Part shown: positions 14,869-56,195 of the stretch, in pieces
Layout of the letters: each line of letters begins with the position of its first letter
Numbering within the stretch: position 1 is the stretch's first letter
Source of the DNA: Rubripirellula sp.
GTDB taxonomy: Bacteria; Planctomycetota; Planctomycetia; Pirellulales; Pirellulaceae
Length of the DNA: 64,000 bases
Assembly (NCBI GenBank): GCA_965216875.1
Contig: OZ244207.1
Location: forward strand, 576,001-640,000
Direction of reading: 5' to 3'
Program-made: the position numbers and the translations under genes
Notes under the pieces: generated by a model
The model's input: the letters and a program-made list of their open reading frames with translations, nothing else
Database searches by the model: none
Told to the model about the DNA's origin: nothing

Positions 14869-15000
14869 ATTTTTGTTGATAGGCGTTTGGCTCTAGGCTT
14901 TAGGCTTTAGGCTTTAGGGAGAAGTTCGCAGGGTGAAGTGTGAAAAATCAGTGCGGGCGGTTTCTTTCACACTCCAAACTTCACCCTTCACAATTCAAAG

Positions 15001-15072
15001 TAGCTCGACCAGGATTCGAACCTGGAACACCTCGTTCGAAGCGAGACATGATGTCCGTTTCACCATCGAGCC
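15001..15072 (-). tRNA. tRNA-Arg(TCG)
   Basis: Cloverleaf, GTTCGA T-loop, loop CT-TCG-AA. Confidence 0.8.
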
Positions 15073-15083
15073 GTGTTGCAGAG

Positions 15084-15170
15084 CGGAAGGCATGGGATTT
15101 GAACCCACATGACTCAGGAAGTCGCACGGTTTAGCAAACCGGCCCGGCAAGCCGTATCCGGCTACCTTCC
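15084..15170 (-). tRNA. tRNA-Ser(GCT)
   Basis: Long variable arm, loop TT-GCT-AA. Confidence 0.85.
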
Positions 15171-15180
15171 GAAACTTGAG

Positions 15181-15260
15181 TGGACCGCAAGGGAATCGAA
15201 CCCACAAACATGTAACGGAGGTTTGAGCTCCGCCGCTTTTCCGGTTTGCGTACCACGCCG
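15181..15260 (-). pseudogene. Chimeric tRNA: Leu(CAA) 5' part fused to Ala 3' end
   Basis: The two halves match two different array B genes; T and acceptor stems mismatch. Confidence 0.7.
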
Positions 15261-15262
15261 AT

Positions 15263-15325
15263 CGTTGCCTTTCGCTCCGCGAAAGTAGCATTCAGTAACG
15301 TTGCTTTCGCGGAGCGAAAGACGAC
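15263..15325. repeat. REP-like palindrome (half copy near 32628)
   Basis: ctttcgctccgcgaaag ... ctttcgcggagcgaaag. Confidence 0.6.
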
Positions 15326-15331
15326 ATTAAG

Positions 15332-15421
15332 CGTCCCCGATCGGATTTGAAGCGACAGGGACCTGCTTGGCTCTTGCGTAACAATGCCTGGCAAGCGAGC
15401 ACTCCGCTGCTCCACGAGAAC
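15332..15421 (-). pseudogene. Degenerate tRNA-like sequence
   Basis: Acceptor and D arm recognisable; anticodon and T arms scrambled. Confidence 0.5.
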
Positions 15422-15493
15422 TTTGGAAGTTTGAAGTTGGAAGGGGGAAGTGTGAAATTTCAAACTTCGAACTTCACCCTTTAAACTTCCGAG

Positions 15494-15567
15494 TAGCTCA
15501 GGTGGGACTCGAACCCACAGCATCTCTGGTTCTAAGCCAAAGTGGTCTACCAATTGCCTACCGAGCC
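15494..15567 (-). tRNA. tRNA-Leu(TAG), short variable arm
   Basis: Loop CT-TAG-AA. Confidence 0.75.
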
Positions 15568-15584
15568 ATGTTGATTGAACGGAG

Positions 15585-15655
15585 TGGAGCGCCGGGGAAT
15601 CGAACCCCGATTTTCTGCGTGCAAAACAGATGTCTTCCCGTTGGACGAGCACCCC
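15585..15655 (-). tRNA. tRNA-Ala(TGC)
   Basis: G3-U70 pair, loop TT-TGC-AC. Confidence 0.85.
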
Positions 15656-15744
15656 ATTTGAAGTTGGAAGTAAGAAGGGTGAAGTGTCAAAGAGGTTCGC
15701 GTTCCGTTTTCAACCTTTGCACTTCACCATTCAAACTTCTCAAG

Positions 15745-15835
15745 TGCCCAGGTCACGAGTCGAACCGGCAAACACTCGGACCCAGTATTCAAGGAATACT
15801 GGGCCGAGTCGCTCTGCCAGTTGGCGTAACTGGGC
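15745..15835 (-). pseudogene. tRNA-Leu(TAA) ortholog with anticodon loop replaced by a 10-bp hairpin
   Basis: CCCAGTATTC-CTT-GAATACTGGG inside the anticodon stem; compare 53865-53938. Confidence 0.65.
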
Positions 15836-15896
15836 GTCCGATGCTCACCGACCGATGCAAGTTTCTTGCACCGCCCGGCAAGCTGTTTTATAGCGA

Positions 15897-16163
15897 TCAT
15901 TTCAATCGCGGTTGGCTGTCGCCTGTTGCGTTGCGGTGATTGCGAATCGCTTTCCGATAGTCGGGAGTATCCGCGGCATCAACGACCTCATGGCCGACGC
16001 ACTCAACCACCCATCCATCAACCCAGCGATCGAGGTCGTCTTTCAGTTTCAGGACACGACCCAGCTTCGCAAACTGCTGAGGGATGTATGACGTTGTCTG
16101 CACCGAGCCACCGGCGACCGCACGTTTCATCGCACACTGCACGTATTTGACTTGTTTGGCCAT
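15897..16163 (-). CDS. Small conserved hypothetical protein inside the tRNA array
   Basis: GGAG RBS; homolog at the same position in array B (54003-54262). Confidence 0.75.
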   Translation of the reverse strand: MAKQVKYVQCAMKRAVAGGSVQTTSYIPQQFAKLGRVLKLKDDLDRWVDGWVVECVGHEVVDAADTPDYRKAIRNHRNATGDSQPRLK

Positions 16164-16211
16164 CGTCATTCTCCAAGGTTGGCATGAAGCAGCGTCACCG
16201 TGACGCGTGAG

Positions 16212-16257
16212 TAGTCCTGGATGGAATCGAACCATCGTTTCCTGTTTGTAAGACAGG
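16212..16257 (-). pseudogene. Truncated tRNA-Val(TAC), 5' half missing
   Basis: Nearly identical to the 3' half of 54315-54386; breaks at the repeat flank of a four-helix-bundle cassette. Confidence 0.8.
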
Positions 16258-16316
16258 TGAATGAAGTTTGAAGCGTGAAGTTCGAAGTTTGAAACGAAGT
16301 TCGGTAGATTGTTGGC

Positions 16317-16661
16317 ATGAAAAGTGACTTGCCTGACCGGACATTTGCGTTTTCCGAGCGAATCGTGCGACTCTGTCTGGCACTGGAGGATGAAAGCGAT
16401 GTCGCTTCAACTCTGATGAGGCAATTGCTTCGGTCGGGTACATCTATCGGCGCGAATGTGGAGGAAGCTCAGGCAAGTGAAAGCAAGCGTGACTTCGTTC
16501 ACAAGTATTCGATTGCAGCTAAAGAGGCTCGCGAAACACATTACTGGCTGCGACTGCTAGCCAAGACCGAGGTCATTCCGCCATCTCGCCTTGAACCACT
16601 CACTGCTGAAGCCAACGAACTGGTCGCAATCCTGACGACAATCTGCAAGAAGAACCGGTGA
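16317..16661 (+). CDS. Four helix bundle protein (23S rRNA IVP / bAvd-like family)
   Basis: QLLRSGTSIGANVEEAQ...F.HKYSIAAKEARETHYWL signature. Confidence 0.93.
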   Translation: MKSDLPDRTFAFSERIVRLCLALEDESDVASTLMRQLLRSGTSIGANVEEAQASESKRDFVHKYSIAAKEARETHYWLRLLAKTEVIPPSRLEPLTAEANELVAILTTICKKNR

Positions 16662-16702
16662 CAATCTTTCAAACTTCGAACTTCACCCTTCAAACATCCA
16701 AG

Positions 16703-16773
16703 CACGTCCCCAAGGATTTGAACCCTGACTTACTGGTTTGGAATCAGCAGTGCTACCGTTACACCAAGGACGC
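16703..16773 (-). tRNA. tRNA-Trp(CCA)
   Basis: Loop TT-CCA-AA. Confidence 0.8.
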
Positions 16774-16981
16774 GGGTAAAGTTTGAATTGAGAAGGGTGA
16801 AGTTAGAAGGCGAAGTATCTTCCGCTCATTTCACACTTCAAAATTCCTACGTCGAACTTCCAAGCGCCTCCCGTGTGGAAACGCTCCCAGAATAGGCTTT
16901 AGGTATTAGGTGATTAGACTCTAGGTAAAAGCTGCCTTCTTGCCTGCAGCCTAAACCGCTATGGTCTAAACACCTTCCAAG

Positions 16982-17026
16982 TGACGTGAGCGGGAATCGA
17001 ACCCGCGAACTCCTGGCTGAGAACCA
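16982..17026 (-). pseudogene. Truncated tRNA-Glu(CTC)
   Basis: 3' half of the 54707-54781 ortholog, ending at a heptamer-repeat hairpin. Confidence 0.7.
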
Positions 17027-17131
17027 TAGTGAGACTTCAGGGATCAGGATTCAGACTTCAGAAGTGACCTATTGTCCGACCTGAAGCCTGAAGCCTGAAG
17101 CCTGAAGCCTGAAACCTGCAGCCTGAATCAG

Positions 17132-17203
17132 TACCGCATGGGAGTTTCGATCTCCCTCCTGCTGTTAGAAAGACAGCCGACCTAGCCAGTAGTCGAATGC
17201 GGC
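17132..17203 (-). tRNA. tRNA-Glu(TTC), atypical T-loop
   Basis: Loop CT-TTC-TA; T-arm GGAG-ATCGAAA-CTCC. Confidence 0.65.
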
Positions 17204-17308
17204 GAAGAAAGGCTTTGGGCTCTAGACCATAGGAAAGACGATCAGGTTCGAGCTAGAGCCTAGAGCCTAGAGCCTAGAGCCTGAGGACTAAAGCCTGCGA
17301 AGCCGAAG

Positions 17309-17383
17309 CGCCGAGGACAGGAATCGAACCTGTGTTTGCCTGGTTCAGAGCCAGGTGCAACGACCAACAGTTGCCGCCTCGGT
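17309..17383 (-). tRNA. tRNA-Gln(CTG)
   Basis: Loop CT-CTG-AA. Confidence 0.8.
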
Positions 17384-17421
17384 GTACGGAAGTTTGAAGT
17401 CGGAAGTTCGAAGTTTGAAAG

Positions 17422-17493
17422 CACGGGTGGCAGGATTCGAACCTGCATACCACTGCTTCAAAGGCAGCTGGCTTACCGTTAGCCAACACCCGA
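17422..17493 (-). tRNA. tRNA-Gln(TTG)
   Basis: Loop CT-TTG-AA. Confidence 0.8.
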
Positions 17494-17548
17494 GTGTCTG
17501 CGTTGAACGTTTCAAACTTCTAGCTTCCCACTTCTAACTTCCGAAAGG

Positions 17549-17621
17549 CTCCGGCGGATGGGCTCGAACCATCAATCGTCTCCTTAACAGGGAGCCGCCC
17601 TACCGATTGGGCCACACCGGA
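17549..17621 (-). tRNA. tRNA-Asn(GTT)
   Basis: Loop CT-GTT-AA. Confidence 0.85.
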
Positions 17622-17674
17622 GTATCATCAGGCTTCAGGGATCAGGTTTCAGACTTCAGGATCTAGGGGCGAAG

Positions 17675-18034
17675 ATGAGAGACTACAGAAAACTGCGTGC
17701 GTTCGAATTGGCGGATCAGCTTGCAATCGCTGTCTACAAGTGCACGTCATCTTTCCCGAAAGAGGAAATGTTCGGACTGACATCTCAACTTCGACGCGCC
17801 GCTGTCTCCGCACCATCCAACATCGTCGAAGGAAGTGCAAAGTCATCACAAGCTGACTATGTTCGATTCCTCGAAATCTCCTACGGCTCTGTTTGCGAGG
17901 TTGAATATCAGCTGTCACTCGCACAACGCCTGTCGTATCTCGATGAACAAACAGCAACGGAGGTGATCGGCGTCGCCAATGAAGCCGGACGAGTACTCAA
18001 CGGCCTTCTTCGCTCACTGAAGTCTGACTCCTGA
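17675..18034 (+). CDS. Four helix bundle protein (23S rRNA IVP / bAvd-like family)
   Basis: FPKEEMFGLTSQLRRAAVSAPSNIVEG signature. Confidence 0.95.
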   Translation: MRDYRKLRAFELADQLAIAVYKCTSSFPKEEMFGLTSQLRRAAVSAPSNIVEGSAKSSQADYVRFLEISYGSVCEVEYQLSLAQRLSYLDEQTATEVIGVANEAGRVLNGLLRSLKSDS

Positions 18035-18051
18035 AGCCTGAAGTCTGACCA

Positions 18052-18122
18052 AGCGCCCAGCGAGAATTGAACTCGCGTCTTCTGCATGGCAAGCAGATGG
18101 GTTACCACTACACCATGGGCGC
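18052..18122 (-). tRNA. tRNA-Gly(GCC)
   Basis: Loop TT-GCC-AT. Confidence 0.85.
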
Positions 18123-18141
18123 AAAATGCATCACAACCAGA

Positions 18142-18153
18142 TTGTCAAAGATC
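18142..18153 (-). promoter_or_regulatory. boxA-like antitermination motif
   Basis: GATCTTTGACAA, identical at 55743-55754. Confidence 0.55.
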
Positions 18154-18211
18154 GGATCAGGCTTCAGGTCTCAGTCTTCAGACTTCAGTTTTCTTGCTGA
18201 AGTCTGACAAA

Positions 18212-18284
18212 GAGCACCGAGTCGGATTCGAACCGACGTCCCCTCGTTACGACGGAGGGATCTTCCCACTAGACGATCAGTGCT
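18212..18284 (-). tRNA. tRNA-Thr(CGT)
   Basis: Loop GT-CGT-AA, one anticodon-stem mismatch. Confidence 0.7.
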
Positions 18285-18427
18285 GGAGTCAGGTGTCAGG
18301 CTCCAGGCTCCAGGTTCCAGGTACTAGGCTTCAGGTTTGAGGTTTCTGTTCCTTGCTGAAGTCTGAAGTCTGAAGTCTGAAGTCTGAAGCCTGAAGCCTG
18401 AAGCCTGAAGCCTAAAGTCTGCCCAAG

Positions 18428-18500
18428 TGGGACCGGTGAGAATCGAACTCACATGAGTCGGTTTAAGAGACCGGTGCATTACCTTGTCTGCCACAATCCC
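18428..18500 (-). tRNA. tRNA-Lys(CTT)
   Basis: Loop CT-CTT-AA. Confidence 0.8.
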
Positions 18501-18531
18501 AAATTGTGTTTTTGTCGTTGATTCGTTTCAG

Positions 18532-18604
18532 TCGGCGTGGCGGGAATTGAACCCGCGACCGTCGCCTTATAAGGACGCCGCTCTCACCCCTGAGCTACAC
18601 GCCG
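18532..18604 (-). tRNA. tRNA-Ile(TAT)
   Basis: Loop CT-TAT-AA. Confidence 0.75.
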
Positions 18605-18615: not shown

Positions 18616-18637
18616 GTGGGGCCGGAGAGATTCGAAC
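18616..18637 (-). other. Left att junction: displaced 3' end of tRNA-Lys(TTT)
   Basis: gtggggccggagagattcgaac is identical to the 3' end of the intact Lys gene at 56195-56216. Confidence 0.9.
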
Positions 18638-18676
18638 CTGTCTCGTTGCCAACGGAACTTCTCACTGACTCTGGAG

Positions 18677-18748
18677 TAGGATTGCAGGGACTCGAACCCC
18701 GACCCAACCGGTTAAAAGCCGGTGATGCTGCCGTAACACCTCAATCCC
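18677..18748 (-). tRNA. tRNA-Lys(TTT), element-borne replacement
   Basis: Loop CT-TTT-AA; full cloverleaf inside the left junction. Confidence 0.85.
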
Positions 18749-18752
18749 AAAT

Positions 18753-18787
18753 AAAAAACCCAGTGCCGTCGTGTGACACCGGGTTTT
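18753..18787 (-). terminator. Attenuator-type intrinsic terminator (element copy)
   Basis: AAAACCCGGUGUC/GGCACUGGGUUUUUU hairpin. Confidence 0.75.
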
Positions 18788-18814
18788 GTTGTTTCCAGCA
18801 ACAAAACGCCAACG

Positions 18815-18904
18815 TCACCGACGAAGCGGATACCAATCCAATCCATTCGCACCGCAACTGCGGGCGAGCGAATCGCTATTCAGATTCTGTTGTGTCGATT
18901 GCAT
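18815..18904 (-). CDS. Putative leader peptide, 29 aa (MQSTQQNLNSDSLARSCGANGLDWYPLRR)
   Basis: Same position as the array leaders; shares NGxDxYP with leader A; stop lies in GUGAC. Confidence 0.6.
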   Translation of the reverse strand: MQSTQQNLNSDSLARSCGANGLDWYPLRR

Positions 18905-18974
18905 TGGTATTGACCGCTACTTCTCTCGGTTTAGTGATTTTCGTTTGTCGTCCAATCTCAGGCCGACGGAACAA

Positions 18975-19047
18975 TAGACCAGCGAGCGAAAAGAAGGTTC
19001 GCGTCGCTGACAGGAATAGAGATGCTTGGGGCGATATGGTTATTTCA
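18975..19047 (-). promoter_or_regulatory. Tandem ECF-like promoters (element copy)
   Basis: TGAAAT-N16-GCATCT and GCGAACC-N16-GTCTA. Confidence 0.65.
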
Positions 19048-19086: not shown

Positions 19087-20061
19087 TCATTCAGCCTCAT
19101 CATTCGGATCGTAGTCCAGCGATTGGAGATTCATCCCTTCAAGCAATGGTCGCGGATACCAAGCAGCGATACCAAACGCGTTTCCGTCGGTGTCAAAGCA
19201 TCCAGGACCGCCTAGCTTGTAGCCTGACTCGAAGTCTGGGTCGGCTTCAAATCGGCTAAGTATCACCCCAAGAAAAAAAGGCATGTGGGGGACTTCCATG
19301 ATCCGAAGGTCGAATCGAAAACTAAACTCACCCTGAAACGGGAGTTCGCGTCGAAGGATGTAGTTGCCGTTTGTTGTCGTTGCCGACACCAACTCAGACA
19401 CGGGGAACATAAAGAATTCCAGATTGTATGCCGTTGACGTTGGCAACCCGGCATACAAGGGATGATGCCAGAGGTCACCGGGTCGAAACGTCTCAGCGTG
19501 TTTGCCTCCGCGTTCGACGAATTTATCAAGCCCTTGAAATATCAATCCGCAAAGCGGTCCAGAGGTGACGTTCACAGAAGTGGGGGCTTTCAGGCCAACA
19601 CCCCTTATTTGCTCAAGTTCCCGGTTGTACCCAGACACAATCGGTCGACCGGAACTCGAAAACTGAACAAAGCCGCCCATGTGAAGGCTTAGCTTGACCC
19701 GGTCGCTGACAGTAAAAGTGGCGGATTCGTGTAGCTTCTGTATCGACTGCTTCTGCGAATAGTCGTAGGGGATTCTTAGGACCAGTCCATCGGTTACCGG
19801 ATGATATGGGACAGACAAATGAAATCCGTCCCTCAAGAATCCGATACGCGCAATAAGCCGCTCACGACCGTCTTCGCCTTCAACGGCAACACGGTAGCCT
19901 TCCCCAATGTGCTTTCTCACTTTTCGAGAACTTTGACCGACCGCCTCTACAGCGCGGCGCAGGCGAGATTTGGATACTCCGATCGCACCCGCGTAATACT
20001 GCAAAAGCCAATCCTCATTGGGATCGATATTGTCTGGGATATCCGAAATGATCATGCGCAC
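19087..20061 (-). CDS. DUF3606-like N-terminal domain protein
   Basis: IDPNEDWLLQYYAGAIGVSKSRLRRAVEAVG resembles DUF3606; remainder unassigned. Confidence 0.6.
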   Translation of the reverse strand: MRMIISDIPDNIDPNEDWLLQYYAGAIGVSKSRLRRAVEAVGQSSRKVRKHIGEGYRVAVEGEDGRERLIARIGFLRDGFHLSVPYHPVTDGLVLRIPYDYSQKQSIQKLHESATFTVSDRVKLSLHMGGFVQFSSSGRPIVSGYNRELEQIRGVGLKAPTSVNVTSGPLCGLIFQGLDKFVERGGKHAETFRPGDLWHHPLYAGLPTSTAYNLEFFMFPVSELVSATTTNGNYILRRELPFQGEFSFRFDLRIMEVPHMPFFLGVILSRFEADPDFESGYKLGGPGCFDTDGNAFGIAAWYPRPLLEGMNLQSLDYDPNDEAE

Positions 20062-20081
20062 GAACCAAATAACTCAGAGTA

Positions 20082-20672
20082 CTAGAGACCGACCATGCGA
20101 TTCCAGTCAGCAACATACATCTCGATCCGATGAAACTCACCAGGCAACAGCAGTCGGTTGTGAGCCATAAAGTTCCGGGCCTTTTCAAGCTCGTCAAATC
20201 GTTGCTTCAACCAATGCTGCGTCGGAATCAGGTCTGAGAAATCCTCCCAGTTGTTGAGGATGATGTCGGCAAGGTGTCCAAATTGCACGAATCCCAGAAC
20301 GTCACGCTTCTGGCCTTCGAGCCACGAGTTGGTGTTCGCGTCTTCCTGACGTGCTTCCGCAAACTCACGGATCTTCTTTGTCACCTTATTGTCCCACCAA
20401 TCATCTCCATACTGCTCTTGGAGGCGTTGCGTGATAAGGGATCGCACAGAATTCTCGAAGCAGTAGACCAAGGAATAGAGTCGTCCCATTTGTAACGCTT
20501 CATTGCGAAGGTCAATGCTAAAGGGATCCAGTGTTTCGTTGAGCAACGCGCGCTCGGATTCAGTCGTGTCGGCCCCAACACGGATGCCGGCAGATCGAAA
20601 GTGTTCCGCGTCCGCTTCGAACATCAGACCTCGAAACATCCAGTCCCTAACTTCCTTTCGTTCAATCTTCAA
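20082..20672 (-). CDS. Swt1-like HEPN domain protein (predicted RNase)
   Basis: FENSVRSLI..., YGDDWW and the RNFMAH Rx4H HEPN motif. Confidence 0.85.
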   Translation of the reverse strand: MKIERKEVRDWMFRGLMFEADAEHFRSAGIRVGADTTESERALLNETLDPFSIDLRNEALQMGRLYSLVYCFENSVRSLITQRLQEQYGDDWWDNKVTKKIREFAEARQEDANTNSWLEGQKRDVLGFVQFGHLADIILNNWEDFSDLIPTQHWLKQRFDELEKARNFMAHNRLLLPGEFHRIEMYVADWNRMVGL

Positions 20673-21297
20673 TTAAGTGCTCCTTCAGTGATTTAAAGAT
20701 GGCATTATAGACTTCGATATCTTTGGTAGGCGGAAGGTGTATTTCGATGTTGTATCGAAGTCCACCAAACGCCGGCATTTGAACTTGGCTTGTGTCCGCC
20801 TTTGCTTCCTTGTCTGGCGATTCCCCGCGGTCTTCAGTTCCTTGATTCTCATCACCCGTTGGTGCCCCATTTCGTCTTGCGGCATCAAGGTCTGCGAGGT
20901 CGAGCAAAGCAAAAAACGTTTTTGCTTGCTCTTTCGCGACCCTATCGGATGCGTTGTGAAATGACTTAAATTTTCCCTCAATCGAAGCGCGATCCGCTTC
21001 CGTAGGGTTCTCATTGACGTGGAACACCTCTTCGTACGCTTCGTGGAGTGCTTCTGCCATCACCTCACGTGATCGCGATTTGTCGCGGTAGTCATGGTAG
21101 CGCTGCGTTGGACTGCCATCGCCGGTCAAAAACCCGAGGTCCTTAAGCACAGGGATGATCCCCATGTCATTGCTGCTCTTGAAGCCAATCCCCTTGAGAT
21201 GTGCCTGGGAGAATTTCTCTGGCGCGGTACCCTCGATGATCTTTTGCATGATCGCGTGCAGGTTTTTGGTGCTGGTCATGTAGCGTGAAGTCAACAA
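20662..21297 (-). CDS. DUF5343 family protein
   Basis: APEKFSQAHLKGIGFKSSND...GSPTQRY; C-terminal YNIEIHLP; overlaps the HEPN gene. Confidence 0.8.
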   Translation of the reverse strand: MLTSRYMTSTKNLHAIMQKIIEGTAPEKFSQAHLKGIGFKSSNDMGIIPVLKDLGFLTGDGSPTQRYHDYRDKSRSREVMAEALHEAYEEVFHVNENPTEADRASIEGKFKSFHNASDRVAKEQAKTFFALLDLADLDAARRNGAPTGDENQGTEDRGESPDKEAKADTSQVQMPAFGGLRYNIEIHLPPTKDIEVYNAIFKSLKEHLIED

Positions 21298-21576
21298 TTT
21301 GATCTCCCTTCTCGTTCTCGTGGTATGGAGGGATTGAATAACTATTCAGCGAGTACAGACCCAGTCTACATTTATCTGGTTCGCGCCCGCAATCGACCGC
21401 GTATGGCGGGAGATGGCCCGGATATCGACCACTCCCCGTCAATGGATTTAGAACGAGCGTCGATTCTAAATCGTCGGGTTAGGTAGCGGCGGCTGCCGTG
21501 ATGGATCGACGTTCGGCATTGGCTTTCTGCTGGGCGTCGATGCATCGGCCCATTCCCCAGCCGGAAAGCCATTCTG

Positions 21577-22953
21577 ATGATCGAAAACCCATTCTTGCGT
21601 GACATGGAATCCTATCTCTACACCGTAGGCTTTCCGCCGCCTGACTTCCTTGACTTCGCGGATGCGATGGTGCTGCCCAGAATCGACCTGCCTTTCAAGC
21701 AAGCCAGCAAGATCAAGGAAAAGCGATGGGAAGCGACCTGCTGCGCCCACAACCTGATCTACGCGGGGCTCGTCAATCGGACGGTTGCGGACTCCCGTGA
21801 TGGCAAAGGCAAATCACGAGCTCGCGTCTGGGACGCGATCATCAAGGCCGGATTCGCTGATAGATGTACTGGGAGCGAGCAATCCGGCAAAGTGACACGC
21901 TATTACCCTCGTGCCAAACTGCTGCGGCTTCGGAAGCAGTGGAAATTGGATTTGCTGATCGACCTTCAGCTAGAACGCAACACTGAACGTCCACACGATC
22001 CAACGAAGCAAGCGTTGGTCCTCCTGCATAGCAGCAAGGTCGATCCAGTCACAGGGCTGAAGTTGGACGAGTTGGATCAAAAGCAACCGCTGTCTTTTCA
22101 CGACTGGGCAAAGAACGAAGCCGGACCACGGGGGATGCAGAGCGGACTTGAGTACGTACAAGCGATGGAGGATCTGATCGAACGAATCAACCGATCCAAC
22201 CTGCGGCATTCCTGGCAGGCATTTCACGTCAATCCCATGAGCAGCAAGGAAACGGCATTTCAACCCAATTCATGTGTCAGACAGATTCACGTCGGTGAGA
22301 TGTTTCGGGGCACGCGACTCTACTCGTGGTCACTGCTGTCCGGCCAGAGCCTACCGAAAGAAGATCGCAAGCGAATGCTGATCGATGGCGAGCCGGTAGC
22401 CGAGTTTGACTATTCAGGTATGGCGACGCGGATGCTTTACCACCGAACACGTCTGAGAGGGCCCAAGGGCGACGTGTACAAGCCGGACGAATTGTTCCCA
22501 AGGTTTTACGCGTTCGAACCTAGCCCCGAAACGGCCGAGATCGTGCGTGAATTCGGGAAACGGGCCACGAACATCTGCTGGAACGTTTCCAGCCGAGCCA
22601 ATGCAAATTCGGCGATCAGCAAACTGATTACCGATCATCCCGATCGCGACCTGATCGAATCCGTTTTGAAATCGGAGGGGATGAAACGCACCGATGTCGT
22701 GACACGCATCCAAGCAGCCCATCCGAAACTGGCCGAGGATTTCTTTTCAGGAGTCGGAATCGAACTGATGACCGTTGACGGCAGCATTATGCTCCGCATT
22801 CTCGAAACGTTTGCCGACGCCGATAAGCCAGTGCTGGGCATTCACGATTCCATCGTGGTACGCGAATCAGACCGCAGGTTTGCCAGGCGAACGATGAAAG
22901 ACGCTTACCGCCGATTCATGCTTTTTGAGCCCGTGATCAAACGTGTCTATTAG
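21577..22953 (+). CDS. Family A polymerase / single-subunit RNAP-like palm domain protein
   Basis: GEPVAEFDYSGMATRMLY (motif A-like) and VLGIHDSIVV (motif C-like). Confidence 0.55.
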   Translation: MIENPFLRDMESYLYTVGFPPPDFLDFADAMVLPRIDLPFKQASKIKEKRWEATCCAHNLIYAGLVNRTVADSRDGKGKSRARVWDAIIKAGFADRCTGSEQSGKVTRYYPRAKLLRLRKQWKLDLLIDLQLERNTERPHDPTKQALVLLHSSKVDPVTGLKLDELDQKQPLSFHDWAKNEAGPRGMQSGLEYVQAMEDLIERINRSNLRHSWQAFHVNPMSSKETAFQPNSCVRQIHVGEMFRGTRLYSWSLLSGQSLPKEDRKRMLIDGEPVAEFDYSGMATRMLYHRTRLRGPKGDVYKPDELFPRFYAFEPSPETAEIVREFGKRATNICWNVSSRANANSAISKLITDHPDRDLIESVLKSEGMKRTDVVTRIQAAHPKLAEDFFSGVGIELMTVDGSIMLRILETFADADKPVLGIHDSIVVRESDRRFARRTMKDAYRRFMLFEPVIKRVY

Positions 22954-23472
22954 GGTCTTCGTAACTCGTTGCAAAAGCCCGAGTTACGAGTTTTTGGCGG
23001 GGTAATATAGGAATAGAAATCCCGAATAGAAAACCCAACCGCCCCCCGCCCCTCCCTCCGCCCTCCCCAAAGGAGGGCGGAAAGGGAGGAAGCGGAACGC
23101 GGAAACGGATGAATAAGAAACGAACCCAACGTTAGACGTGTTACGGTTGCACGGTAGACGTCATCAGCACGTGGCACGTCCTAGACGCTGTCGGAAGTCG
23201 TAGACCCAACGTCCTGCGTCGGTACGCCTTTTGGTGCCTTATTGGGCGTTCGTGCGTAAAAAAAGATGAACTTTTTTAAGTTGTGCCGCAGCAAGCGTTT
23301 GCGTCAACGCAATATGCGCAATTGACGCGTTTCTGAGCGCATCAACGTGTTTTTCTGGGCGCATAACTCAGGGTATCCAGCGATATAGATGTGCACGGGA
23401 TGATTCATCGTCGAATTGCCCATACACGAACTCGGATCGTGTAGAGCTCTACACGCTAAGACTGAGAGCATC

Positions 23473-24144
23473 ATGCCAAGGTATCGAACGCCCCATTGGA
23501 CCGACGGACGAATCGCGAAGCTGCATGGAAGTGCACTAACCAGACGGTTCGCCAATCTTGCCGAGGTCGCGAATAAGTACCACAGGATATGCGCTGAGAA
23601 TGAGCAGTCAGCTTTGGATTGCGCCAAAAAAGTAGGTGATGCTCTGACCGAGGCCAAGCGTCGGTGTGGTCATCGCAAGAAGTGGTCGAAGTGGCGCAGC
23701 GACAACTTCGCTGGATCAAAAGAGACTTCATGCCACTACATGCGAATCGCTCGTGAATGGAACAATCCCAAAATCCGCGAGGCGATGGCACGCGGTGAGA
23801 TCAAGAGTATCAACCAGTTTCTCGCGGTGCTTCGCAGAAAGGGAAATCCCAAATCGCAAACGACAGCGGAACAACGACACGTAATCAGGCTATTCACGAA
23901 ACTTGCCAAAGATCTGAACTGGGCCGACCAAAACCGTTTGGCAATGCATAGCACGGCCCAGGACGTAATGCCCAAATTGAGTGATTTTTTGCTAGAAGTA
24001 CTGAAGGGGTATCCAGTTCCACATCTGGTCGAGGTTTACCCAGGAGAGTACGAGATCAACTACTACGATGACGGCGATCAAGCTGAGGTGACCATGCCTC
24101 CTGGTATCAAACCACGCACCCAAAAAAGAGCCAAAAACCGGTAA
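23473..24144 (+). CDS. DUF3102-like protein
   Basis: AKKVGDALTEAKRRCGH.KKWSKW...YMRIA. Confidence 0.6.
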   Translation: MPRYRTPHWTDGRIAKLHGSALTRRFANLAEVANKYHRICAENEQSALDCAKKVGDALTEAKRRCGHRKKWSKWRSDNFAGSKETSCHYMRIAREWNNPKIREAMARGEIKSINQFLAVLRRKGNPKSQTTAEQRHVIRLFTKLAKDLNWADQNRLAMHSTAQDVMPKLSDFLLEVLKGYPVPHLVEVYPGEYEINYYDDGDQAEVTMPPGIKPRTQKRAKNR

Positions 24145-24208
24145 TGGCTAAGGCTACCTATCAGCCGGATTCCTTTTCCATGATTGGTCCTGTGTCTTGG
24201 AATGTGGA

Positions 24209-25279
24209 TCAGGAGTTCTGATAAACTGCACGGCCAACCTTCAGCACATCGCGGCGATAGTCGCGATCCCACCTTGAAAAGCGCTCCATAGTTCTTTCGT
24301 CTTGGTGTGCAGCGAGAACAAGAACAGCACACCAATGGTCGACATCACCCATCGCATGTTTATGTGAATCAGCGAACATCTCGAAAACTTCTTTTGCGCG
24401 AGGCACGGATTTTCTCAATACCGCGTCCAACTCGCCGAGGGTCGAGATTTCGGTTGCTTTGCACGCTGCAAGCAGATCTTCAGAGTCAGGCTGGGCTCTT
24501 GCCGCTTTGAGCTTACTCTTGGACACCGCGTCCATAACATCACGCACAATGCTCGCTTCTTCGCAGTACTGCTCGATCGAAATCGCGTTAATTTCAATCT
24601 TCAGTGTTTTGTCCGCCAACTGCTCGGACACTTCCTTAGCAAGTGATTCTTGCTGCGCCTTTAAGCTCGTAAACTCGTCGTCGGCTAACTCAAACAACCC
24701 TGCAAGTCTCATGAGACGTCGCCGAAACTTGGATGGAACGTCAGATTCGCGCTTGTATTGCAAATGATGGGAAATTGCCGCCCATGCGTGCTGAAGAACT
24801 GTCCTTACCTGAATTTCGCACACCAATCCCACGAACGCATCCCATTCTGGCAACTTCGCCCGAGCATCGTTGAGCGATACGACTAGGTGGACGGACAGAT
24901 ACCCAAACTGATCTGCATCCAATTCCGACGATTTATCAATGCTGCGTGCGTCATCAACCTCGAACTCGTTCCGCAGAATCTTGGTAACTTCATCTACGTC
25001 CTCTTGGTAGTACAGAATCACGCGAGCGCCTGCGAGGTCGGGCAACTCATCAAGCGGGTTCGTGTAGGATTTGCCGGGTCGCTGAATCTTTTCCGCAAAA
25101 CTCTCAATACTCTTTGCACGTGATTCAGTGGTGTGGTGCGGGATCGAGTGTTTCTTTATCAGTTGGAGAATCAGCAATTCGATGCGGCGAGCAAATTCTT
25201 GAATTCGAGGTTGCATCATGCCATAGTCGGCGACCAATTGATCATGATCCGTTGCATTTCTCCGGCGTTTTTTTCCCAT
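24209..25279 (-). CDS. RelA/SpoT-domain small alarmone synthetase with C-terminal extension
   Basis: RAKSIESFAEK, DLAGARV, GYLSVH and EIQVRTVLQHAWA motifs. Confidence 0.9.
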   Translation of the reverse strand: MGKKRRRNATDHDQLVADYGMMQPRIQEFARRIELLILQLIKKHSIPHHTTESRAKSIESFAEKIQRPGKSYTNPLDELPDLAGARVILYYQEDVDEVTKILRNEFEVDDARSIDKSSELDADQFGYLSVHLVVSLNDARAKLPEWDAFVGLVCEIQVRTVLQHAWAAISHHLQYKRESDVPSKFRRRLMRLAGLFELADDEFTSLKAQQESLAKEVSEQLADKTLKIEINAISIEQYCEEASIVRDVMDAVSKSKLKAARAQPDSEDLLAACKATEISTLGELDAVLRKSVPRAKEVFEMFADSHKHAMGDVDHWCAVLVLAAHQDERTMERFSRWDRDYRRDVLKVGRAVYQNS

Positions 25280-25698
25280 AGATCCTTTGCTCAACAAGAG
25301 ACTGCAGTTAGGCCCACGGCGGGGATACCAATACTTGTTCCGCTGATGGTCGTAATGTAACAGGGTGCGGCTATAGATGCGAAAGCGCTACGCTGGGGTA
25401 GGGATCGCAGTGGCTCAGTATCAGTATCCGGCAGCGGCACCGCATTCCGCACCGTGATTCACGGGGTCAGCGTCATCCGTGATCCGCTCACGACGATCTA
25501 TAGATGAAACTGGCCATCGGTTCGGAGCTGCGCTAGAAAACGGGTCCAGGTACGCGAGAGATATTCGCGGCCAACGGGAGCGACGCCTAACGCTTTGCCT
25601 TCCGTATTCGCCCGAAGCGTCGCATAGGAAATGCAAACGCCGTAGAGCGCGATTTAGAACGCCTACGCGACGTGTTCTCCAACGAAAGGAGCCAACCG

Positions 25699-26322
25699 AT
25701 GCCGAAACAGAAACCCGTTGCGATCTATGCCCGTGTCAGCTCGCAGAAGCAGGACACCGCCAGCCAGTTGCCGGACCTGAAACGCTGGGCCGATGCCCAA
25801 GACGCGGACGTGCTGTGGTTCGAGGACGAAGTTAGCGGCACGACGATGGACCGACCGCAATGGTCTGAGGTCGCCAAGCTGATTAGCGCTCGAAGGATCT
25901 CAGCCGTTGTTGTTTGGCGGTTGGATCGTCTTGGACGTAACGTCAGCGGGCTTTCCAGTTTGTTCGATGAGATGCGGGCCAAGGGCGTTGATCTGGTCAG
26001 CCTGAAAGACGGTCTGACGTTATCGACGCCAGCCGGACGATTGATGGCTAACGTCCTCGCCAGCGTTGCACAGTTTGAAACGGAGATCAGAGCCGAGCGC
26101 GTGTTGGCTGGTCAGGCGAAGGCGAAAGCGAACGGCAAGACGTGGGGCGGAAGCAAGCCAGGTGTGCGGAAGAAAGTAACGCAGGAACAGATCGATGCGA
26201 TTGAGATGCTGTACGACGAGGAGATGTCTACTGCCGCCATCGCACGAACGGTGAAGCTCGGACGAAACACCGTAGCCAGCGTTATTCGCGAGATTCGAGA
26301 AAACTCCCCTTTTCGTAAATGA
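25699..26322 (+). CDS. Small serine recombinase (resolvase/invertase)
   Basis: YARVSS, RLDRLGRN, C-terminal HTH. Confidence 0.93.
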   Translation: MPKQKPVAIYARVSSQKQDTASQLPDLKRWADAQDADVLWFEDEVSGTTMDRPQWSEVAKLISARRISAVVVWRLDRLGRNVSGLSSLFDEMRAKGVDLVSLKDGLTLSTPAGRLMANVLASVAQFETEIRAERVLAGQAKAKANGKTWGGSKPGVRKKVTQEQIDAIEMLYDEEMSTAAIARTVKLGRNTVASVIREIRENSPFRK

Positions 26323-26362: not shown

Positions 26363-26737
26363 ATGACGAGAGCCAAGAGCCACCGAAACGAACTACCTTC
26401 CAAATACGAGCGGGGATTCCTGAAAGGACTGGACCGACGTACGCAAATCTACGCGCGGCTGACTGCGATACACGATGAAATCGTGGACGATCTGGGCGGC
26501 AAGGATGGGCTATCGCATACGAAGCTCGCATTGATCGAACGCTTCGTATTTCTTGAAGCCGTGATCCAGAAGATGGAACTGGACATGGCCAAGTCCAAGA
26601 CGCTCAATGGCGAGGAGCTTAATCGCTGGATCCAAGGCCTGAACTCAATGACGGGTCTGGCCAAAACGATCGGCTTGGAACGCCGCCAACGAGCGGTCAA
26701 CGTTCGCGACTACGCCAAGAAAAGGGCCGCGTCATGA
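26363..26737 (+). CDS. Hypothetical protein, possible terminase small subunit
   Basis: Helical 124 aa ORF coupled (ATGA) to the terminase-like gene. Confidence 0.5.
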   Translation: MTRAKSHRNELPSKYERGFLKGLDRRTQIYARLTAIHDEIVDDLGGKDGLSHTKLALIERFVFLEAVIQKMELDMAKSKTLNGEELNRWIQGLNSMTGLAKTIGLERRQRAVNVRDYAKKRAAS

Positions 26738-28137
26738 ATATCGTCCAAGCGATTAAGGATGAAAACCTGATCCAGCCTTTCTTGGGCGATGACTTGAGTT
26801 CTTGGCGTCCATGGGTATCGGCCCTCCGTGTGATGTATGGGTTGCCGTTGTCACGGTCCGATCGCATCCGAGCGAGGAAATGCACCGGACGCGATCCGGC
26901 AGGGATGCCGGCGGAGGGCTTTGATACTGCTCTTTTCCTGACCGGCAGACGTAGCGGCAAGTCGCGTATTGCATCGGTGATCGGTGCATACGAGGCGATC
27001 CTGGCGGGTCACGAGGATCGGCTGTCCAAGGGTGAACAAGGCGTCGTGGCGGTCTGCGCTCCAACGAAACACCAAGCCCAGATCGTGAAAAGCTATCTGC
27101 GTGCGGTGTTTGATTGCGGCTTCCTTCGCCACGAGGTGAGCAGCGATACCAGCGACGGGTTCAGCCTGAACAACGGCAACCGCATCACGATTCTCGCTGG
27201 CGACTGGCGAACGATTCGCGGGTTCACGTTGATCGCCGCCATCATCGATGAAGCTTGCTTTTTCGGATACGACGCAGAGTCAAAAGTCCGCAGTGATACG
27301 GAGCTCGTGCGGGCGATCAAACCGGCACTGGCAACGGTGGGCGGCAAGCTGATCTGTATCAGTAGCCCATACGCCAAGCAAGGCTATTGCTTCCAGCAGA
27401 CGAAGAAGCAGCACGGCAACGACAAAGGCAAAAACCTTGTCTGGTGGGCCCCATCGCAAACGATGAACCCCACGCTTCCGCAAAAGGCAATCGATGACGC
27501 CTTGGCGGAGGATTACGCAGCGGCACGTTCTGAGTATTTCGCCGAATTCCGTGATGACGTGGCCGCGTACATTTCCCGCGAAGTCGTGGAACGGTTGGTC
27601 GTGTCAGGTCGCACGCGACTATTGCCCAGACCAGATACGCGTTACTTCGCTTTCGCTGATATGAGCGGTGGGCGTGGTGACGCATCCGTGTTGGCGATTG
27701 CCCATCGCGAGGACGGCAAGATTGTCCTCGATTCCATCGTTGAATTCAAACCGCCATTTAACCCGATCGACGTGATTGAAACGTTCTGCGACGAGCTTCG
27801 GCGTTACCGATGCGGCAGGGTGATGGGCGACAACTACGCGGCTGAATTCGTCTGCCGGACCTTCAATGGTTTCGGCGTGCGCTACATCAAATGCGAGAAG
27901 CCCAAAAGCGTCCTGTACGCCGAGCTTCTGCCTCACTTATGCGCCGACGGTCTGAGTCTTCTGGATCACCCTCCGATACTAGATCAGATAGCCGGTTTAG
28001 AACGCCGTACACGAAGCGGAGGGCGTGACATTATCGACCACCGACCGGGAGCCCATGACGACGTTGCCAACGCGGTAGCGGGCGTGGTCGTGGCGGCCAC
28101 CAAACGCGGTCGCAAATTCGGAGCCATTTGCAATTAG
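26734..28137 (+). CDS. Terminase large subunit-like ATPase/nuclease
   Basis: GRRSGKS Walker A, IIDEA Walker B, ISSP, ADMSGG and HDDVANA nuclease residues. Confidence 0.85.
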   Translation: MNIVQAIKDENLIQPFLGDDLSSWRPWVSALRVMYGLPLSRSDRIRARKCTGRDPAGMPAEGFDTALFLTGRRSGKSRIASVIGAYEAILAGHEDRLSKGEQGVVAVCAPTKHQAQIVKSYLRAVFDCGFLRHEVSSDTSDGFSLNNGNRITILAGDWRTIRGFTLIAAIIDEACFFGYDAESKVRSDTELVRAIKPALATVGGKLICISSPYAKQGYCFQQTKKQHGNDKGKNLVWWAPSQTMNPTLPQKAIDDALAEDYAAARSEYFAEFRDDVAAYISREVVERLVVSGRTRLLPRPDTRYFAFADMSGGRGDASVLAIAHREDGKIVLDSIVEFKPPFNPIDVIETFCDELRRYRCGRVMGDNYAAEFVCRTFNGFGVRYIKCEKPKSVLYAELLPHLCADGLSLLDHPPILDQIAGLERRTRSGGRDIIDHRPGAHDDVANAVAGVVVAATKRGRKFGAICN

Positions 28138-28659: not shown

Positions 28660-29092
28660 AAGGATCGATCCAATGACGTACGTACGCAACGTTAGACAAT
28701 CGCCGAAACCTTTGGAGCGCCCACCGGCTTTGTTTATTGATGAGACCATCTGTGGACCCCGTGCTTCAGGTCGGGAACTGTCTCGCCCATCGCTTCAGTC
28801 GGGACGGCAAGCGACCGGGAGTATCGGGATCGCCATGAATCAGCTTTCGCCTCCCGCGAGGCTTCCCAGTGCCCCGAGGTTTTTCAGTTAGATGCGATCA
28901 CGGCTGCGCATTCGGGGGTGTCCTCTGTGGTTCGTCTCATCTACCCGGAAGTGCCACGCCGCGAGGTGTGCGCTAGCGTAGCCGTAGGGCGGCAAGGTTG
29001 GAGCTTGATCACTCCGATCGGACCAACTAACTGCACGACGGTTGGTCAGCCGCCCTTTTCTCTCCCTGTGTCGTGCGAAAGGTCGTGCAACT

Positions 29093-30739: not shown

Positions 30740-30773
30740 AAGTCCGTCATGCTGCCAGTTACACCACAACCCC
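30695..30773 (-). pseudogene. Disrupted tRNA-Lys(TTT), right att junction
   Basis: 5' part matches 56196-56268; the element-supplied 3' part breaks the T-stem. Confidence 0.85.
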
Positions 30774-32111: not shown

Positions 32112-32146
32112 AAAAAGGCTCGATGTCTGAGTGACACCGAGCCTTC
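32112..32146 (-). terminator. Attenuator-type intrinsic terminator (array A)
   Basis: AAGGCUCGGUGUC/GACAUCGAGCCUUUUU. Confidence 0.75.
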
Positions 32147-32176
32147 ATGTAGAAAGCAATTCGCTTAAAGCGAGTG

Positions 32177-32335
32177 TCACGTCAGCAATCGAAAACCAAA
32201 CGGATACAGGTCCGCGCCATTGCCTGGCTGGAACGTATTGGCGCTGCGTTCGCTTTCGCTGCGCCAATCGCTACCGCCGAAGGGATTCCCTTCGTGTATC
32301 CGTTGGAGTTGACTTGTGGGTTGCTTGGTAAACAT
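32177..32335 (-). CDS. Putative leader peptide, 52 aa (array A)
   Basis: MFTKQPTSQLQRIHEGNPFGGSDWRSESERSANTFQPGNGADLYPFGFRLLT; same length and frame as 56808-56966 with synonymous changes. Confidence 0.75.
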   Translation of the reverse strand: MFTKQPTSQLQRIHEGNPFGGSDWRSESERSANTFQPGNGADLYPFGFRLLT

Positions 32336-32404
32336 CTGACTGAAGAACGGTTGTTCGTTTCTCTTTGCGTGATTTGCGCCAGCATCCGCTGGTTCTGGAT
32401 TAAA

Positions 32405-56168: not shown

Positions 56169-56195
56169 GAGGCGCCAATGGCGCGGCGCCGTAAG

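Follow-up and report, generated by a model that had tools for sequence, protein, structure and literature searches.

A mobile element lodged within a tRNA array raises the question of what becomes of the tRNA gene that it splits and of the genes that it cuts off from their promoter. We consider this question for a 12,084-bp element at positions 18638-30721 of a 64,000-nucleotide (nt) stretch of the genome of a Rubripirellula sp. (Planctomycetota, Pirellulaceae; contig OZ244207.1, positions 576,001 to 640,000), hereafter the window, to which all coordinates refer unless another frame is named. The element encodes a large serine recombinase (LSR), is inserted in the T-loop (TCGAAC) of the tRNA-Lys(TTT) gene of array A, one of two tRNA arrays in the window, and holds at its left end a promoter-like motif, a leader open reading frame (ORF), a terminator and a complete tRNA-Lys(TTT) gene, all reading outward. 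Comparison of this left end with the control modules of host arrays and with the left ends of related elements suggests, with a probability that we put at roughly 0.6, that it restarts regulated transcription of the severed half of the array; the insertion probably does little harm.

Insertion into array A and the split tRNA gene

The genome is a single 8.26-Mb contig, whose PSCyt, PSD and DUF1501 genes mark it as planctomycete, and has 99 tRNA genes, 48 of them inside the window (ARAGORN). The other 51 are dispersed in the normal way and have Lys(TTT) and Lys(CTT) genes among them, and because this set exists the two arrays are supernumerary; arrays A and B are accessory, stress-type tRNA arrays. 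Long tRNA arrays are known from Planctomycetes, and the array of Anabaena is induced by translational stress (PMC8421152; PMC4758250). The insertion involves the following features.

32012-30699 and 18604-15000, minus strand: array A (ARAGORN)
15000..18604, minus strand: 13 tRNA genes (ARAGORN) of the distal half of array A, the first Ile-TAT (18531-18604) and the last Arg-TCG
18616..18637, minus strand: displaced 22-nt 3' end (T-arm 3' strand and acceptor strand) of the array-A tRNA-Lys(TTT), the host half of the left attachment site, attL
18638..18676: 39-nt stretch from the core to the element tRNA, the element-side arm of attL (P' arm of attP)
30699..30772, minus strand: hybrid tRNA-Lys(TTT) at the right attachment site, attR, with host 5' part and element-derived pseudo 3' end (ARAGORN call; Rfam 24.8 bits)
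56638-52016, minus strand: array B, paralogue of array A (ARAGORN)
56195..56268, minus strand: intact array-B tRNA-Lys(TTT), an unoccupied paralogous target (ARAGORN; Rfam 59.6 bits)

TCGAAC stands at both junctions, at 18632-18637 on the left and 30716-30721 on the right, and the host 5' two thirds of the split gene (30722-30772) lie 12 kb from the 3' fragment. The left fragment agrees in every letter with the 3' end of the array-B gene, which in turn is 94% identical to the 5' part of the array-A gene (blastn), and it is also identical to the corresponding part of the intact Lys(TTT) gene of a genome of the same genus, G791. The empty site is preserved in that genome as an uninterrupted Lys(TTT) between Ile(TAT)-like and Ile(GAT) genes, with the same neighbours. 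In the window the element cuts the only recognisable promoter of array A off from 13 downstream tRNA genes.

The hybrid gene at the right junction scores below the Rfam gathering threshold of 29 bits, and its element-derived segment, from the acceptor strand to TCGAAC, is 5 nt longer than that of the real gene; in five of five relatives of the element (see below) ARAGORN calls no tRNA at the right junction. On these grounds we judge the hybrid to be defective and not the intact tRNA of classical restoring islands. Its acceptor-end look-alike is best read from the geometry of the sites as a recombinase half-site and not as an attempted repair. GTGGGGCCG starts 16 nt before TCGAAC in the tRNA (attB arm) and 21 nt before it in the element (attP) arm, and an identical 5-bp displacement, of AGTG(A/G)G, is found in the related element of genome G500. 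In serine integrase sites, the zinc-ribbon-domain motif lies 5 bp nearer the crossover in attB than in attP (PMC3783163). The 5-bp shift of GTGGGGCCG would thus reflect recombinase half-site geometry, and the attR hybrid therefore could not be a proper tRNA. On the left side, GTCCCACT is found similarly far from the core in the arms equivalent to 18638-18676 in G500 and in a further genome, G825.

The left-end module

Beyond the attL arm, the left end of the element contains four features, all on the minus strand and reading outward across attL into the Ile(TAT) to Arg(TCG) genes of the distal array.

18677..18748, minus strand: complete element-borne tRNA-Lys(TTT) (ARAGORN; Rfam RF00005, 51.4 bits)
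18749..18787, minus strand: intrinsic terminator, a stem-loop at 18787-18755 (13 pairs) followed by a U-tract
18815..18904, minus strand: 29-codon leader ORF MQSTQQNLNSDSLARSCGANGLDWYPLRR, with its stop TGA (18817-18815) inside GGTGAC
18974..19002, minus strand: promoter-like motif GCGAACC (19002-18996)-N16-GTCTAT (18979-18974), facing out of the element

The tRNA is 74% identical to the array Lys(TTT) and 70% identical to the core Lys(TTT), and reaches 85-90% identity with the tRNA-Lys genes that stand beside similar, element-type modules in G500 and G825. The U-tract of the terminator abuts its 5' end, with the tRNA beginning 4 nt after the T6 run (18753-18748). Transcription is predicted from the motif to start near 18966-18968. 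The leader ORF (29 codons, CGGTGACG) follows the rule that we find in host arrays (ATG ORF leading to a TGA inside (G/A)TGAC); the promoter-to-ATG offset is 110 nt, compared with 88-111 nt in nine hosts, and the 5' arm of the terminator carries CGGTGTCAC, as host terminators do. The last codons of the leader are complementary to the 5' arm and loop of the terminator, which gives an antiterminator by the pairing CGTCGGTGAC / GTCACACGACG. This duplex has a predicted energy of -17.4 kcal/mol (z -2.1 against shuffles; mean of non-cognate pairings, -13.1), and at minimum free energy the segment 18749-18835 folds into the antiterminator (-35 kcal/mol, z -4.08). No strong minus-strand terminator was found from 18677 to 15000, T-arm look-alikes excepted.

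A first-pass annotation of this stretch had proposed that the element splits tRNA-Lys(TTT) at TCGAAC without properly restoring its 3' end, and that its left end instead carries a complete, divergent tRNA-Lys(TTT) preceded by two promoter motifs, a 29-codon leader and a terminator that all point outward. Each of these items is present in the sequence: the core at both junctions and the empty site in G791, a hybrid that is 5 nt too long and scores 24.8 bits against a threshold of 29, and a left-end gene at 51.4 bits with 74% identity to the array Lys. Three ORF calls that overlap the region (plus strand 18616-19215 and 18786-18977, and a 75-codon minus-strand ORF at 18876-19103) have no Pfam match and are taken as spurious.

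Control modules of host arrays

The two arrays of the window begin with modules of the same kind.

32113..32432, minus strand: native array-A module, with promoter at 32432-32404, 52-codon leader at 32335-32177 and terminator at 32146-32113 (79 bits with covariance model R1, below)
56744..57049, minus strand: native array-B module, paralogue of the array-A module (R1, 74.4 bits)

The array-A module lies upstream of tRNA-Phe (32012-31939), has the promoter GCGAACC-N16-GTCTAT and is 84% identical to the array-B module over 232 nt. A single architecture recurs in nine host arrays of eight genomes. It starts with GCGAACC-N16-GTCT, followed about 55-70 nt past the motif by an ATG ORF of 31-52 codons that usually ends in ...PLRL. 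The TGA, in (G/A)TGAC, is followed by a variable hairpin of small size, then by an intrinsic terminator with the 5' arm CC(C/T)G(G/A)TGTC, and lastly by the first tRNA. From these nine host modules only, with element sequences left out, we built the covariance model R1, which has matches in 78 of 151 genomes of the family (E <= 1e-3). The survey of modules covered 70 loci around R1 matches, in 62 of which a module could be defined by regular expression. A same-strand tRNA lies downstream in 57 of the 62, at a median distance of 28 nt and within 110 nt in 51 of those 57, and the first tRNA is Phe(GAA) in 43.

The host leader is a real ORF. With the element copy of the window set aside, 58 of 59 distinct modules have an ATG ORF of at least 20 codons that stops exactly at the TGA, and the frame of the leader stays open for a median of 64 codons, versus 17-18 in the other frames. 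The stop region and the terminator arm form a duplex of -18.5 kcal/mol on average (59 modules), compared with about -8.5 for shuffled stop regions, the latter an estimate from per-row means. Cognate pairings are stronger than non-cognate ones (-18.5 versus -16.5 kcal/mol; Wilcoxon p = 1.2e-4, in a test that is inflated by related sequences), and compensatory changes can be seen by eye in G370 (TTATGAC with GTCATAA), G190 and G845. Folded without constraints, the host A segment likewise adopts the antiterminator (z -5.03). Taken together, the host array module looks like a ribosome-dependent leader-peptide transcription attenuator, a reading that would fit the stress induction seen in Anabaena. 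A literature search found no paper combining "tRNA array" and "leader peptide".

Kinship and origin of the element module

R1 finds the element copy of the window (18751-18847) at 52.3 bits, with an E-value of about 1.5e-10 over model positions 1-97, and that of the G500 element at 47 bits, also over the full model, compared with at most 11.1 bits for non-module matches in the 155.6 kb searched. By this score the leader-terminator segment of the element is a bona fide member of the host module family. A blastn search of the element module against its own genome matched only the tRNA itself and returned no similarity to the resident modules, so the homology is visible only through the motifs and the covariance model. 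When host A, host B and the element were aligned three ways with MAFFT, only the terminator aligned convincingly, and the alignment was set aside.

Over the 97-nt core, the element module is 43-48% identical to those of host A and B and 57-63% identical to the element-type modules of G500, G825 and G801, which are 72-78% identical to one another; the left ends of the window and G500 elements align as a whole, with 74% mean column identity. These identities indicate that the element module is an old, diverged paralogue that travels with the element or with Lys-headed sub-arrays, and not a recent capture from the host. The earlier description of it as a copy of the host control module is thus right as to family (52.3 bits) and has to be qualified, the module being no fresh copy (43-48% identity).

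Element-type modules also occur where no element is seen. At the head of an array in G825 stand, in order, an element-type promoter, a leader with the end ...YPLRL, a terminator and tRNA-Lys(CTT), then an attL-like scar composed of an attP-type arm with a 3' fragment of tRNA-Lys; no recombinase or TerL (terminase large subunit) gene was found within 18 kb, and ordinary chromosomal genes lie directly upstream of the module. G801 has a second element-type module with Lys(CTT) in mid-array, after Phe and Glu, and similar units of module and Lys(CTT) are present in G792, G839 and G1121, with no element genes in the short stretches examined. Element core genes were likewise absent, over the stretches examined, beside further element-type modules or tRNA-Lys genes (L285, L286, L288 and L289) and beside the other R1-module loci L206-L208. 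In two metagenome loci that carry a related recombinase, L056 and L057, the recombinase and att site are followed by Phe and then by the host terminator, leader and promoter, a layout from which one can see how the element could have captured a module.

Relatives of the recombinase

The recombinase that defines the element is encoded at its right end.

29042..30739, plus strand: LSR of 565 codons, with Resolvase (PF00239, 3.2e-25), Recombinase (PF07508, 3.4e-23) and Zn_ribbon_recom (PF13408, 3.4e-09) domains and a match to phrog_95 integrase (2e-97)

Residues Y31, R33, S35 and Q39, which we take to be the LSR catalytic motif, are invariant in five clade members. Because the ORF crosses the right junction, attP lies within the 3' end of the LSR gene.

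An LSR match at E <= 1e-60 was found in 25 of 400 other genomes of the family. Each of the five best relatives (G803, G500, G845, G816 and G820; full-length identity of 46-49%) sits in a homologous array, where a split tRNA abuts the recombinase gene at its 3' end; the G803 gene has two in-frame TGA codons. Another 21 loci examined, with 33-64% identity and mostly partial coverage, are not beside arrays. The pattern repeats in metagenome sequence, where the five best relatives have 44-47% identity and the four that can be evaluated (L055, L059, L056 and L057, the last two near-identical) all abut array tRNAs, the fifth, L058, ending at a contig edge; lower-ranked metagenome loci are not beside arrays, and two of them have a single tRNA-Pro. 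Inspection by eye of the anticodon loops in the 5' parts identifies the target tRNAs as Lys(TTT) in three cases (window, G500, G845), Lys(CTT) in two (G820, L055), Gly(GCC) in G803, Trp(CCA) in G816, Ile(TAT) in L059 and Phe(GAA) in L056 and L057, and the insertion is always at the T-loop. The specialisation of this recombinase clade on array tRNA T-loops is well supported by these placements, which, in all five family relatives and all four evaluable metagenome relatives, bear out the earlier suggestion that the element is specialised for arrays.

Wider searches added little. Samples of the phylum and of the class (401 genomes each) held few recombinase relatives; a scan of genome contigs gave three loci, none informative; and a scan of viral contigs with the recombinase alignment found no relative above 43% identity, nor did the element-type tRNA pattern match there. 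A homologous-protein search returned a protein 69% identical to the LSR, listed on a 14.5-kb contig (P0002). The Rubripirellula genome of the window encodes a second LSR at genome positions 5641595-5642956 (L006), 42% identical to that of the element, with no tRNA within the 20 kb examined.

The left ends of the elements that can be read differ in content.

Window element, target Lys(TTT): promoter, leader, terminator, tRNA-Lys(TTT)
G500 element, target Lys(TTT): promoter, leader, terminator, tRNA-Lys(CTT)
G803 element, target Gly(GCC): variant promoter CCGAACA-N16-GTCC directly before tRNA-Lys(TTT), with no leader or terminator
G816 element, target Trp(CCA): strict promoter 80 nt from the junction and nothing else
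G820 element, target Lys(CTT): variant promoter CCGAACC-N17-GTCT 80 nt from the junction and nothing else

A relaxed form of the motif, GAAC[CA]-N15-16-[CG]GTC, faces outward 80-397 nt inside the left junction in five of five readable elements. It has only three other matches in 55.7 kb of element DNA, both strands counted, and its genome density predicts 0.029 occurrences per 450 nt. The outward promoter is therefore the conserved part of the left end, as far as these five can tell. Inspection of the left ends of recombinase homologues had been put forward earlier as a check on the module, and its outcome is that an outward promoter-like motif is present in all five readable left ends, with a leader and terminator in the window and G500 elements only. 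The accompanying proposal that the element restores the lost tRNA holds for the window element, which carries the Lys(TTT) that it destroys, and fails for G500, G803, G816 and G820, which do not match their targets; tRNA replacement is true of the window element and is not a rule of the clade.

The promoter motif

The 13-base motif GCGAACC/GTCTAT with a spacing of 15-17 nt occurs four times on the two strands of the 8.26-Mb genome, where about 0.7 occurrences would be expected by an arithmetic estimate. Three copies are in the window, upstream of array A, upstream of array B and in the left end of the element, and one is elsewhere. This array-type motif may belong with promoters of extracytoplasmic function (ECF) sigma factors, which it resembles in its GAAC-type -35 box and CGTC-type -10 box. 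The fourth copy, at genome position 4924921 on the minus strand, lies about 870 nt upstream of an ECF sigma gene (about 4924050-4923468), a candidate sigma factor for the array promoters, and its region is conserved in G791 (78% over 437 nt). An ECF sigma link for the array promoter is suggestive at best. An 11-base version gave 8-16 matches in other genomes, versus 6-8 for a reversed control, and is not specific enough there.

Element genes

The element consists of a conserved core and a variable cargo, which occupies its left half (19087..25297).

19087-20061, minus strand: DUF3606 protein, cargo
20082-20672, minus strand: HEPN_Swt1 protein, PADLOC PDC-M34B, cargo
20662-21297, minus strand: DUF5343 protein, PDC-M34A, cargo
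21577-22953, plus strand: 458-aa protein, phrog_4756, cargo
23416-24144, plus strand: DUF3102 protein, cargo
24209-25297, minus strand: RelA_SpoT-like protein, PDC-S33, cargo
25672..26322, plus strand: small serine recombinase of resolvase/invertase type (Resolvase, 5.4e-42), core
26734..28137, plus strand: terminase-large-subunit-like protein (Terminase_6N, 2.6e-05; phrog_2, 3.6e-24), core

PDC-M34 and PDC-S33 are PADLOC candidate systems. Upstream of the LSR gene lie the small recombinase, a 130-amino-acid (aa) protein, the TerL-like protein and a 170-aa protein. Small recombinase, a protein of about 125 aa, TerL-like protein and LSR form a core common to the five relatives, whose cargo differs. 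The small recombinase is 50-66% identical in four of them, with a weaker, 35% match in G816, and the TerL-like protein is common to all five, at 49-61% identity, with 49-74% for the shared core. A search inside the right end found no terminator that would shield the recombinase from host read-through, and the base composition of the element is not distinct from that of its surroundings. Two sequencing runs labelled as other organisms contain 27-30% of sampled words of 18400-20400; part of the left end or of the cargo may occur near-identically elsewhere. Runs of the same organism that are labelled as possible RNA contained none of the words of the stretch.

Surroundings of the element

Some array genes may be degenerate. 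Rfam tRNA matches at or above the gathering score overlap only 34 of the 48 ARAGORN tRNAs of the window; the matches number 37 and include three uncalled or differently overlapped by ARAGORN. Ile(GAT) at 30881-30953 falls below the gathering score, and a tRNA-like gene at 31066-31136 (Rfam, 32.8 bits) was missed by ARAGORN. Between that gene and tRNA-Phe lie about 700 nt of non-tRNA sequence (window 31066-31850), in which we found no Rfam match and no Pfam match for its 126-codon ORF (31129-31509). Spacers between the array tRNAs (14880-18420, 30780-31190, 55400-55830) contain 7-nt-period repeats CTGAAGY with the inverse CTTCAGR, as well as a unit of about 33 nt (TTTCAAACTTCGAACTTCACCCTTCAAACTTCC) with an inverted partner, and the inverted repeats that flank the array tRNAs could form long processing stems. 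An McrBC-like pair between the arrays (44740-50309) comprises MrcB_N + AAA_5 and then DUF2357 + PD-(D/E)XK nuclease, and an ECF sigma/FecR-like pair is at 34199-36647. Elsewhere in the genome, ARAGORN reports tRNA-Pyl(cta) at 3282034, tRNA-SeC at 7784436, a four-base anticodon (tttc) at 3442059 and, in tandem at 5617444 and 5617562, a pair of tRNA-Pro(cgg) genes that are long for a tRNA (89-90 nt).

Proposed mechanism and alternatives

Insertion of the element by its LSR into the T-loop of tRNA-Lys(TTT) severed the 13 distal tRNA genes from the array promoter. We propose that transcription starts again from the left-end motif, near 18966. Ribosomes translating the 29-codon leader to its TGA would cover the antiterminator strand, upon which the terminator at 18787-18755 would form and transcription would stop; under impaired translation, the last codons of the leader would instead pair with the 5' arm of the terminator and the polymerase would read through, into tRNA-Lys, across attL and on into the distal array. 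The insertion would in this way re-create the conditional control of the array for its cut-off half while supplying a working Lys(TTT) gene, and integration would thereby be nearly cost-free for host and element. The outward promoter would be the conserved, defining part of the device, with the attenuator and tRNA present only in some lineages. That the element restores transcription of the downstream genes, as the first-pass annotation had it, is supported by comparison, since the motif is present in five of five elements, the module scores as a family member with R1 and the antiterminator is kept.

Several observations weigh against this reading. The relaxed motif was defined after the sequences had been inspected, and its count of five in five comes from kin elements and so reflects conservation by descent, not independent events. 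The carried tRNA is the destroyed isoacceptor in the window element only, and the antiterminator pairing of the G500 copy is weak (-11.5 kcal/mol, z -1.1). The array is redundant, given array B and the core Lys(TTT), and selection for compensation may therefore be weak. Contig 3 of G791 (L239, 2350-2386) contains a 37-nt, 89% match to the element promoter with no tRNA nearby; a promoter type found away from arrays is not confined to them and may be a general regulon promoter. The match itself sits upstream of a structured non-tRNA region. Finally, units of module and tRNA-Lys(CTT) occur in arrays with no recombinase in the stretch examined (G792, G839, G801, G825, G1121), and the arrays of genus g3 have the element-type tRNA-Lys as their ordinary Lys(CTT), not preceded by a module. 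By these last two observations transfer may have run in either direction, and on the sequences at hand element-free modules fit equally well as remnants kept for driving arrays and as native Lys-headed sub-arrays that served as the source.

The same facts can be arranged in other ways. The module might serve to express the element's own tRNA-Lys under stress, as a spare that escapes tRNA-Lys nucleases or as a supply for element genes, with read-through into the array incidental. A tRNA-Lys is indeed carried whatever the target, Lys(TTT) in a Gly(GCC) gene in G803 and Lys(CTT) in a Lys(TTT) gene in G500; the element-type tRNA-Lys genes form a conserved group (85-90% identical); and the cargo of the window element includes candidate defence genes with RNA-related domains, HEPN (PDC-M34) and RelA_SpoT-like (PDC-S33). 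We nevertheless think this account unlikely, in view of the G816 and G820 elements, which keep the outward promoter 80 nt from the junction and carry no tRNA, of the missing terminator between the element tRNA and the host array, and of the fact that no tRNA-Lys nuclease was identified here. A still less probable possibility is that the module is a neutral relic, acquired a single time beside attP, by imprecise excision or recombination, from an array head or a Lys-headed sub-array and now functionless. The excised circle would have the order LSR, att, tRNA, terminator, leader and promoter, which mirrors the right junction of L056 and L057, relatives inserted into the first gene of an array, and units of module and Lys(CTT) do exist in arrays without a detected element. 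Against a relic, three diverged copies (window, G500, G825) have preserved the leader ORF, TGA context and YPLR(L/R) end, the antiterminator of the window copy is compensated in its own way (-17.4 kcal/mol cognate versus -13.1 non-cognate), and the promoter is retained in five of five elements though the remaining left end cannot be aligned.

Regulation of the element itself by the outward promoter appears very improbable. In the circle, a left-end promoter reading left would run antisense across attP to the recombinase gene, which reads right at the right end and overlaps attP; integration would switch this transcription off, and the promoter could in this way sense the state of integration. 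It is geometry only that favours this idea; no element gene lies downstream of the promoter when the element is integrated, the array-type promoter and, in some lineages, the attenuator and tRNA are left unexplained, and nothing tested speaks for such a sensor. The restart of array transcription remains the reading that we prefer. A wider version of it, in which a lineage of LSR elements lives on the T-loops of stress arrays, makes its insertions seamless with a portable control device and in turn has its modules recruited by arrays as heads, is one that the sequence comparisons let us offer only tentatively, at somewhat short of even odds.

If transcription from the left end is confirmed, the element would be a clear case of selection on an element for host neutrality, would provide natural, portable and regulated modules for restarting an operon, and would make the switching-on of accessory tRNA arrays accessible to experiment. 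Should the element-free modules derive from elements, mobile elements would shape the regulatory architecture of tRNA arrays. The host module, if it works as proposed, would be the first case to be described of tRNA genes under a leader-peptide attenuator, and would directly induce spare tRNAs when translation falters. The recombinase clade also provides natural integrases whose specificities for tRNA T-arms are related yet shifted.

Comparison with known systems

The proposed control resembles that of the trp and his operons and of antibiotic-resistance genes, in which a leader is translated, antiterminator and terminator hairpins exclude each other and the position of the ribosome decides between them. 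The array modules likewise have a short translated leader and mutually exclusive hairpins, with ribosome position apparently deciding; unlike the trp and his attenuators, they would control tRNA genes, use the stop-codon region as the sensing strand and contain no run of a single codon. The arrays themselves are like the L-arrays in being supernumerary beside a dispersed core tRNA set, and L-arrays are conditionally expressed (PMC8421152; PMC4758250). The Anabaena array has repressor-type repeats over a sigma-70 promoter, whereas the arrays considered here apparently have an ECF-like promoter and a ribosome-dependent attenuator, and the portions of the two reports that we consulted do not describe integrative elements specific to arrays.

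The closest described system that we found, by analogy, is that of the Dehalococcoides ssrA islands, which encode a large (DsiB) and a small (DsiA) serine recombinase (PMC3146451). Compared by that description, the islands share with our element a size of about 12 kb, insertion at a T-loop, the pairing of an LSR (about 540 aa there) with a small recombinase (about 200 aa there), an att repeat inside the recombinase gene, variable cargo and a conserved tRNA-like gene in the integration module. The islands target a single-copy transfer-messenger RNA gene, of which they duplicate 20 bp at the 3' end, whereas the tRNAs targeted here belong to accessory arrays. Unlike the islands as described, our element has a 6-bp shared core, a defective hybrid and an outward promoter at the far end, with an attenuator and tRNA in some lineages.

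In prophages and islands that enter tRNA genes by tyrosine integrases, attP holds an identical tRNA 3' segment, and the gene is rebuilt by the recombination itself; phage HP1, for instance, repeats part of a tRNA operon in its attP. This classical mode of integration is said to have been set out by Reiter in 1989, Campbell in 1992 and Williams in 2002. The present element also lands in a tRNA gene and appears to compensate its own damage, but it does so with a serine recombinase and rebuilds nothing, the compensation coming from separate parts (promoter, attenuator and a whole tRNA). LSR elements that split genes are familiar as switches, such as SPbeta in spsM, skin in sigK and A118-like phages in comK, where function returns on excision. 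Our element is like them in occupying a functional gene through short att sites without long identity, and differs in that it appears to replace the lost functions while integrated. Insertion sequences and transposons drive neighbouring host genes from outward promoters at their ends; here, in contrast, the promoter is of the same rare type as that of the interrupted operon and in two lineages comes with the attenuator of that operon, which would preserve regulation. Elements that land in genes usually rebuild the target, as those with tyrosine integrases do, or break it until they leave, as in the serine-recombinase switches. The element described here looks like a third solution, in which the target is not rebuilt and the promoter type of the operon is brought along, together, in some lineages, with a conditional switch and a replacement gene.

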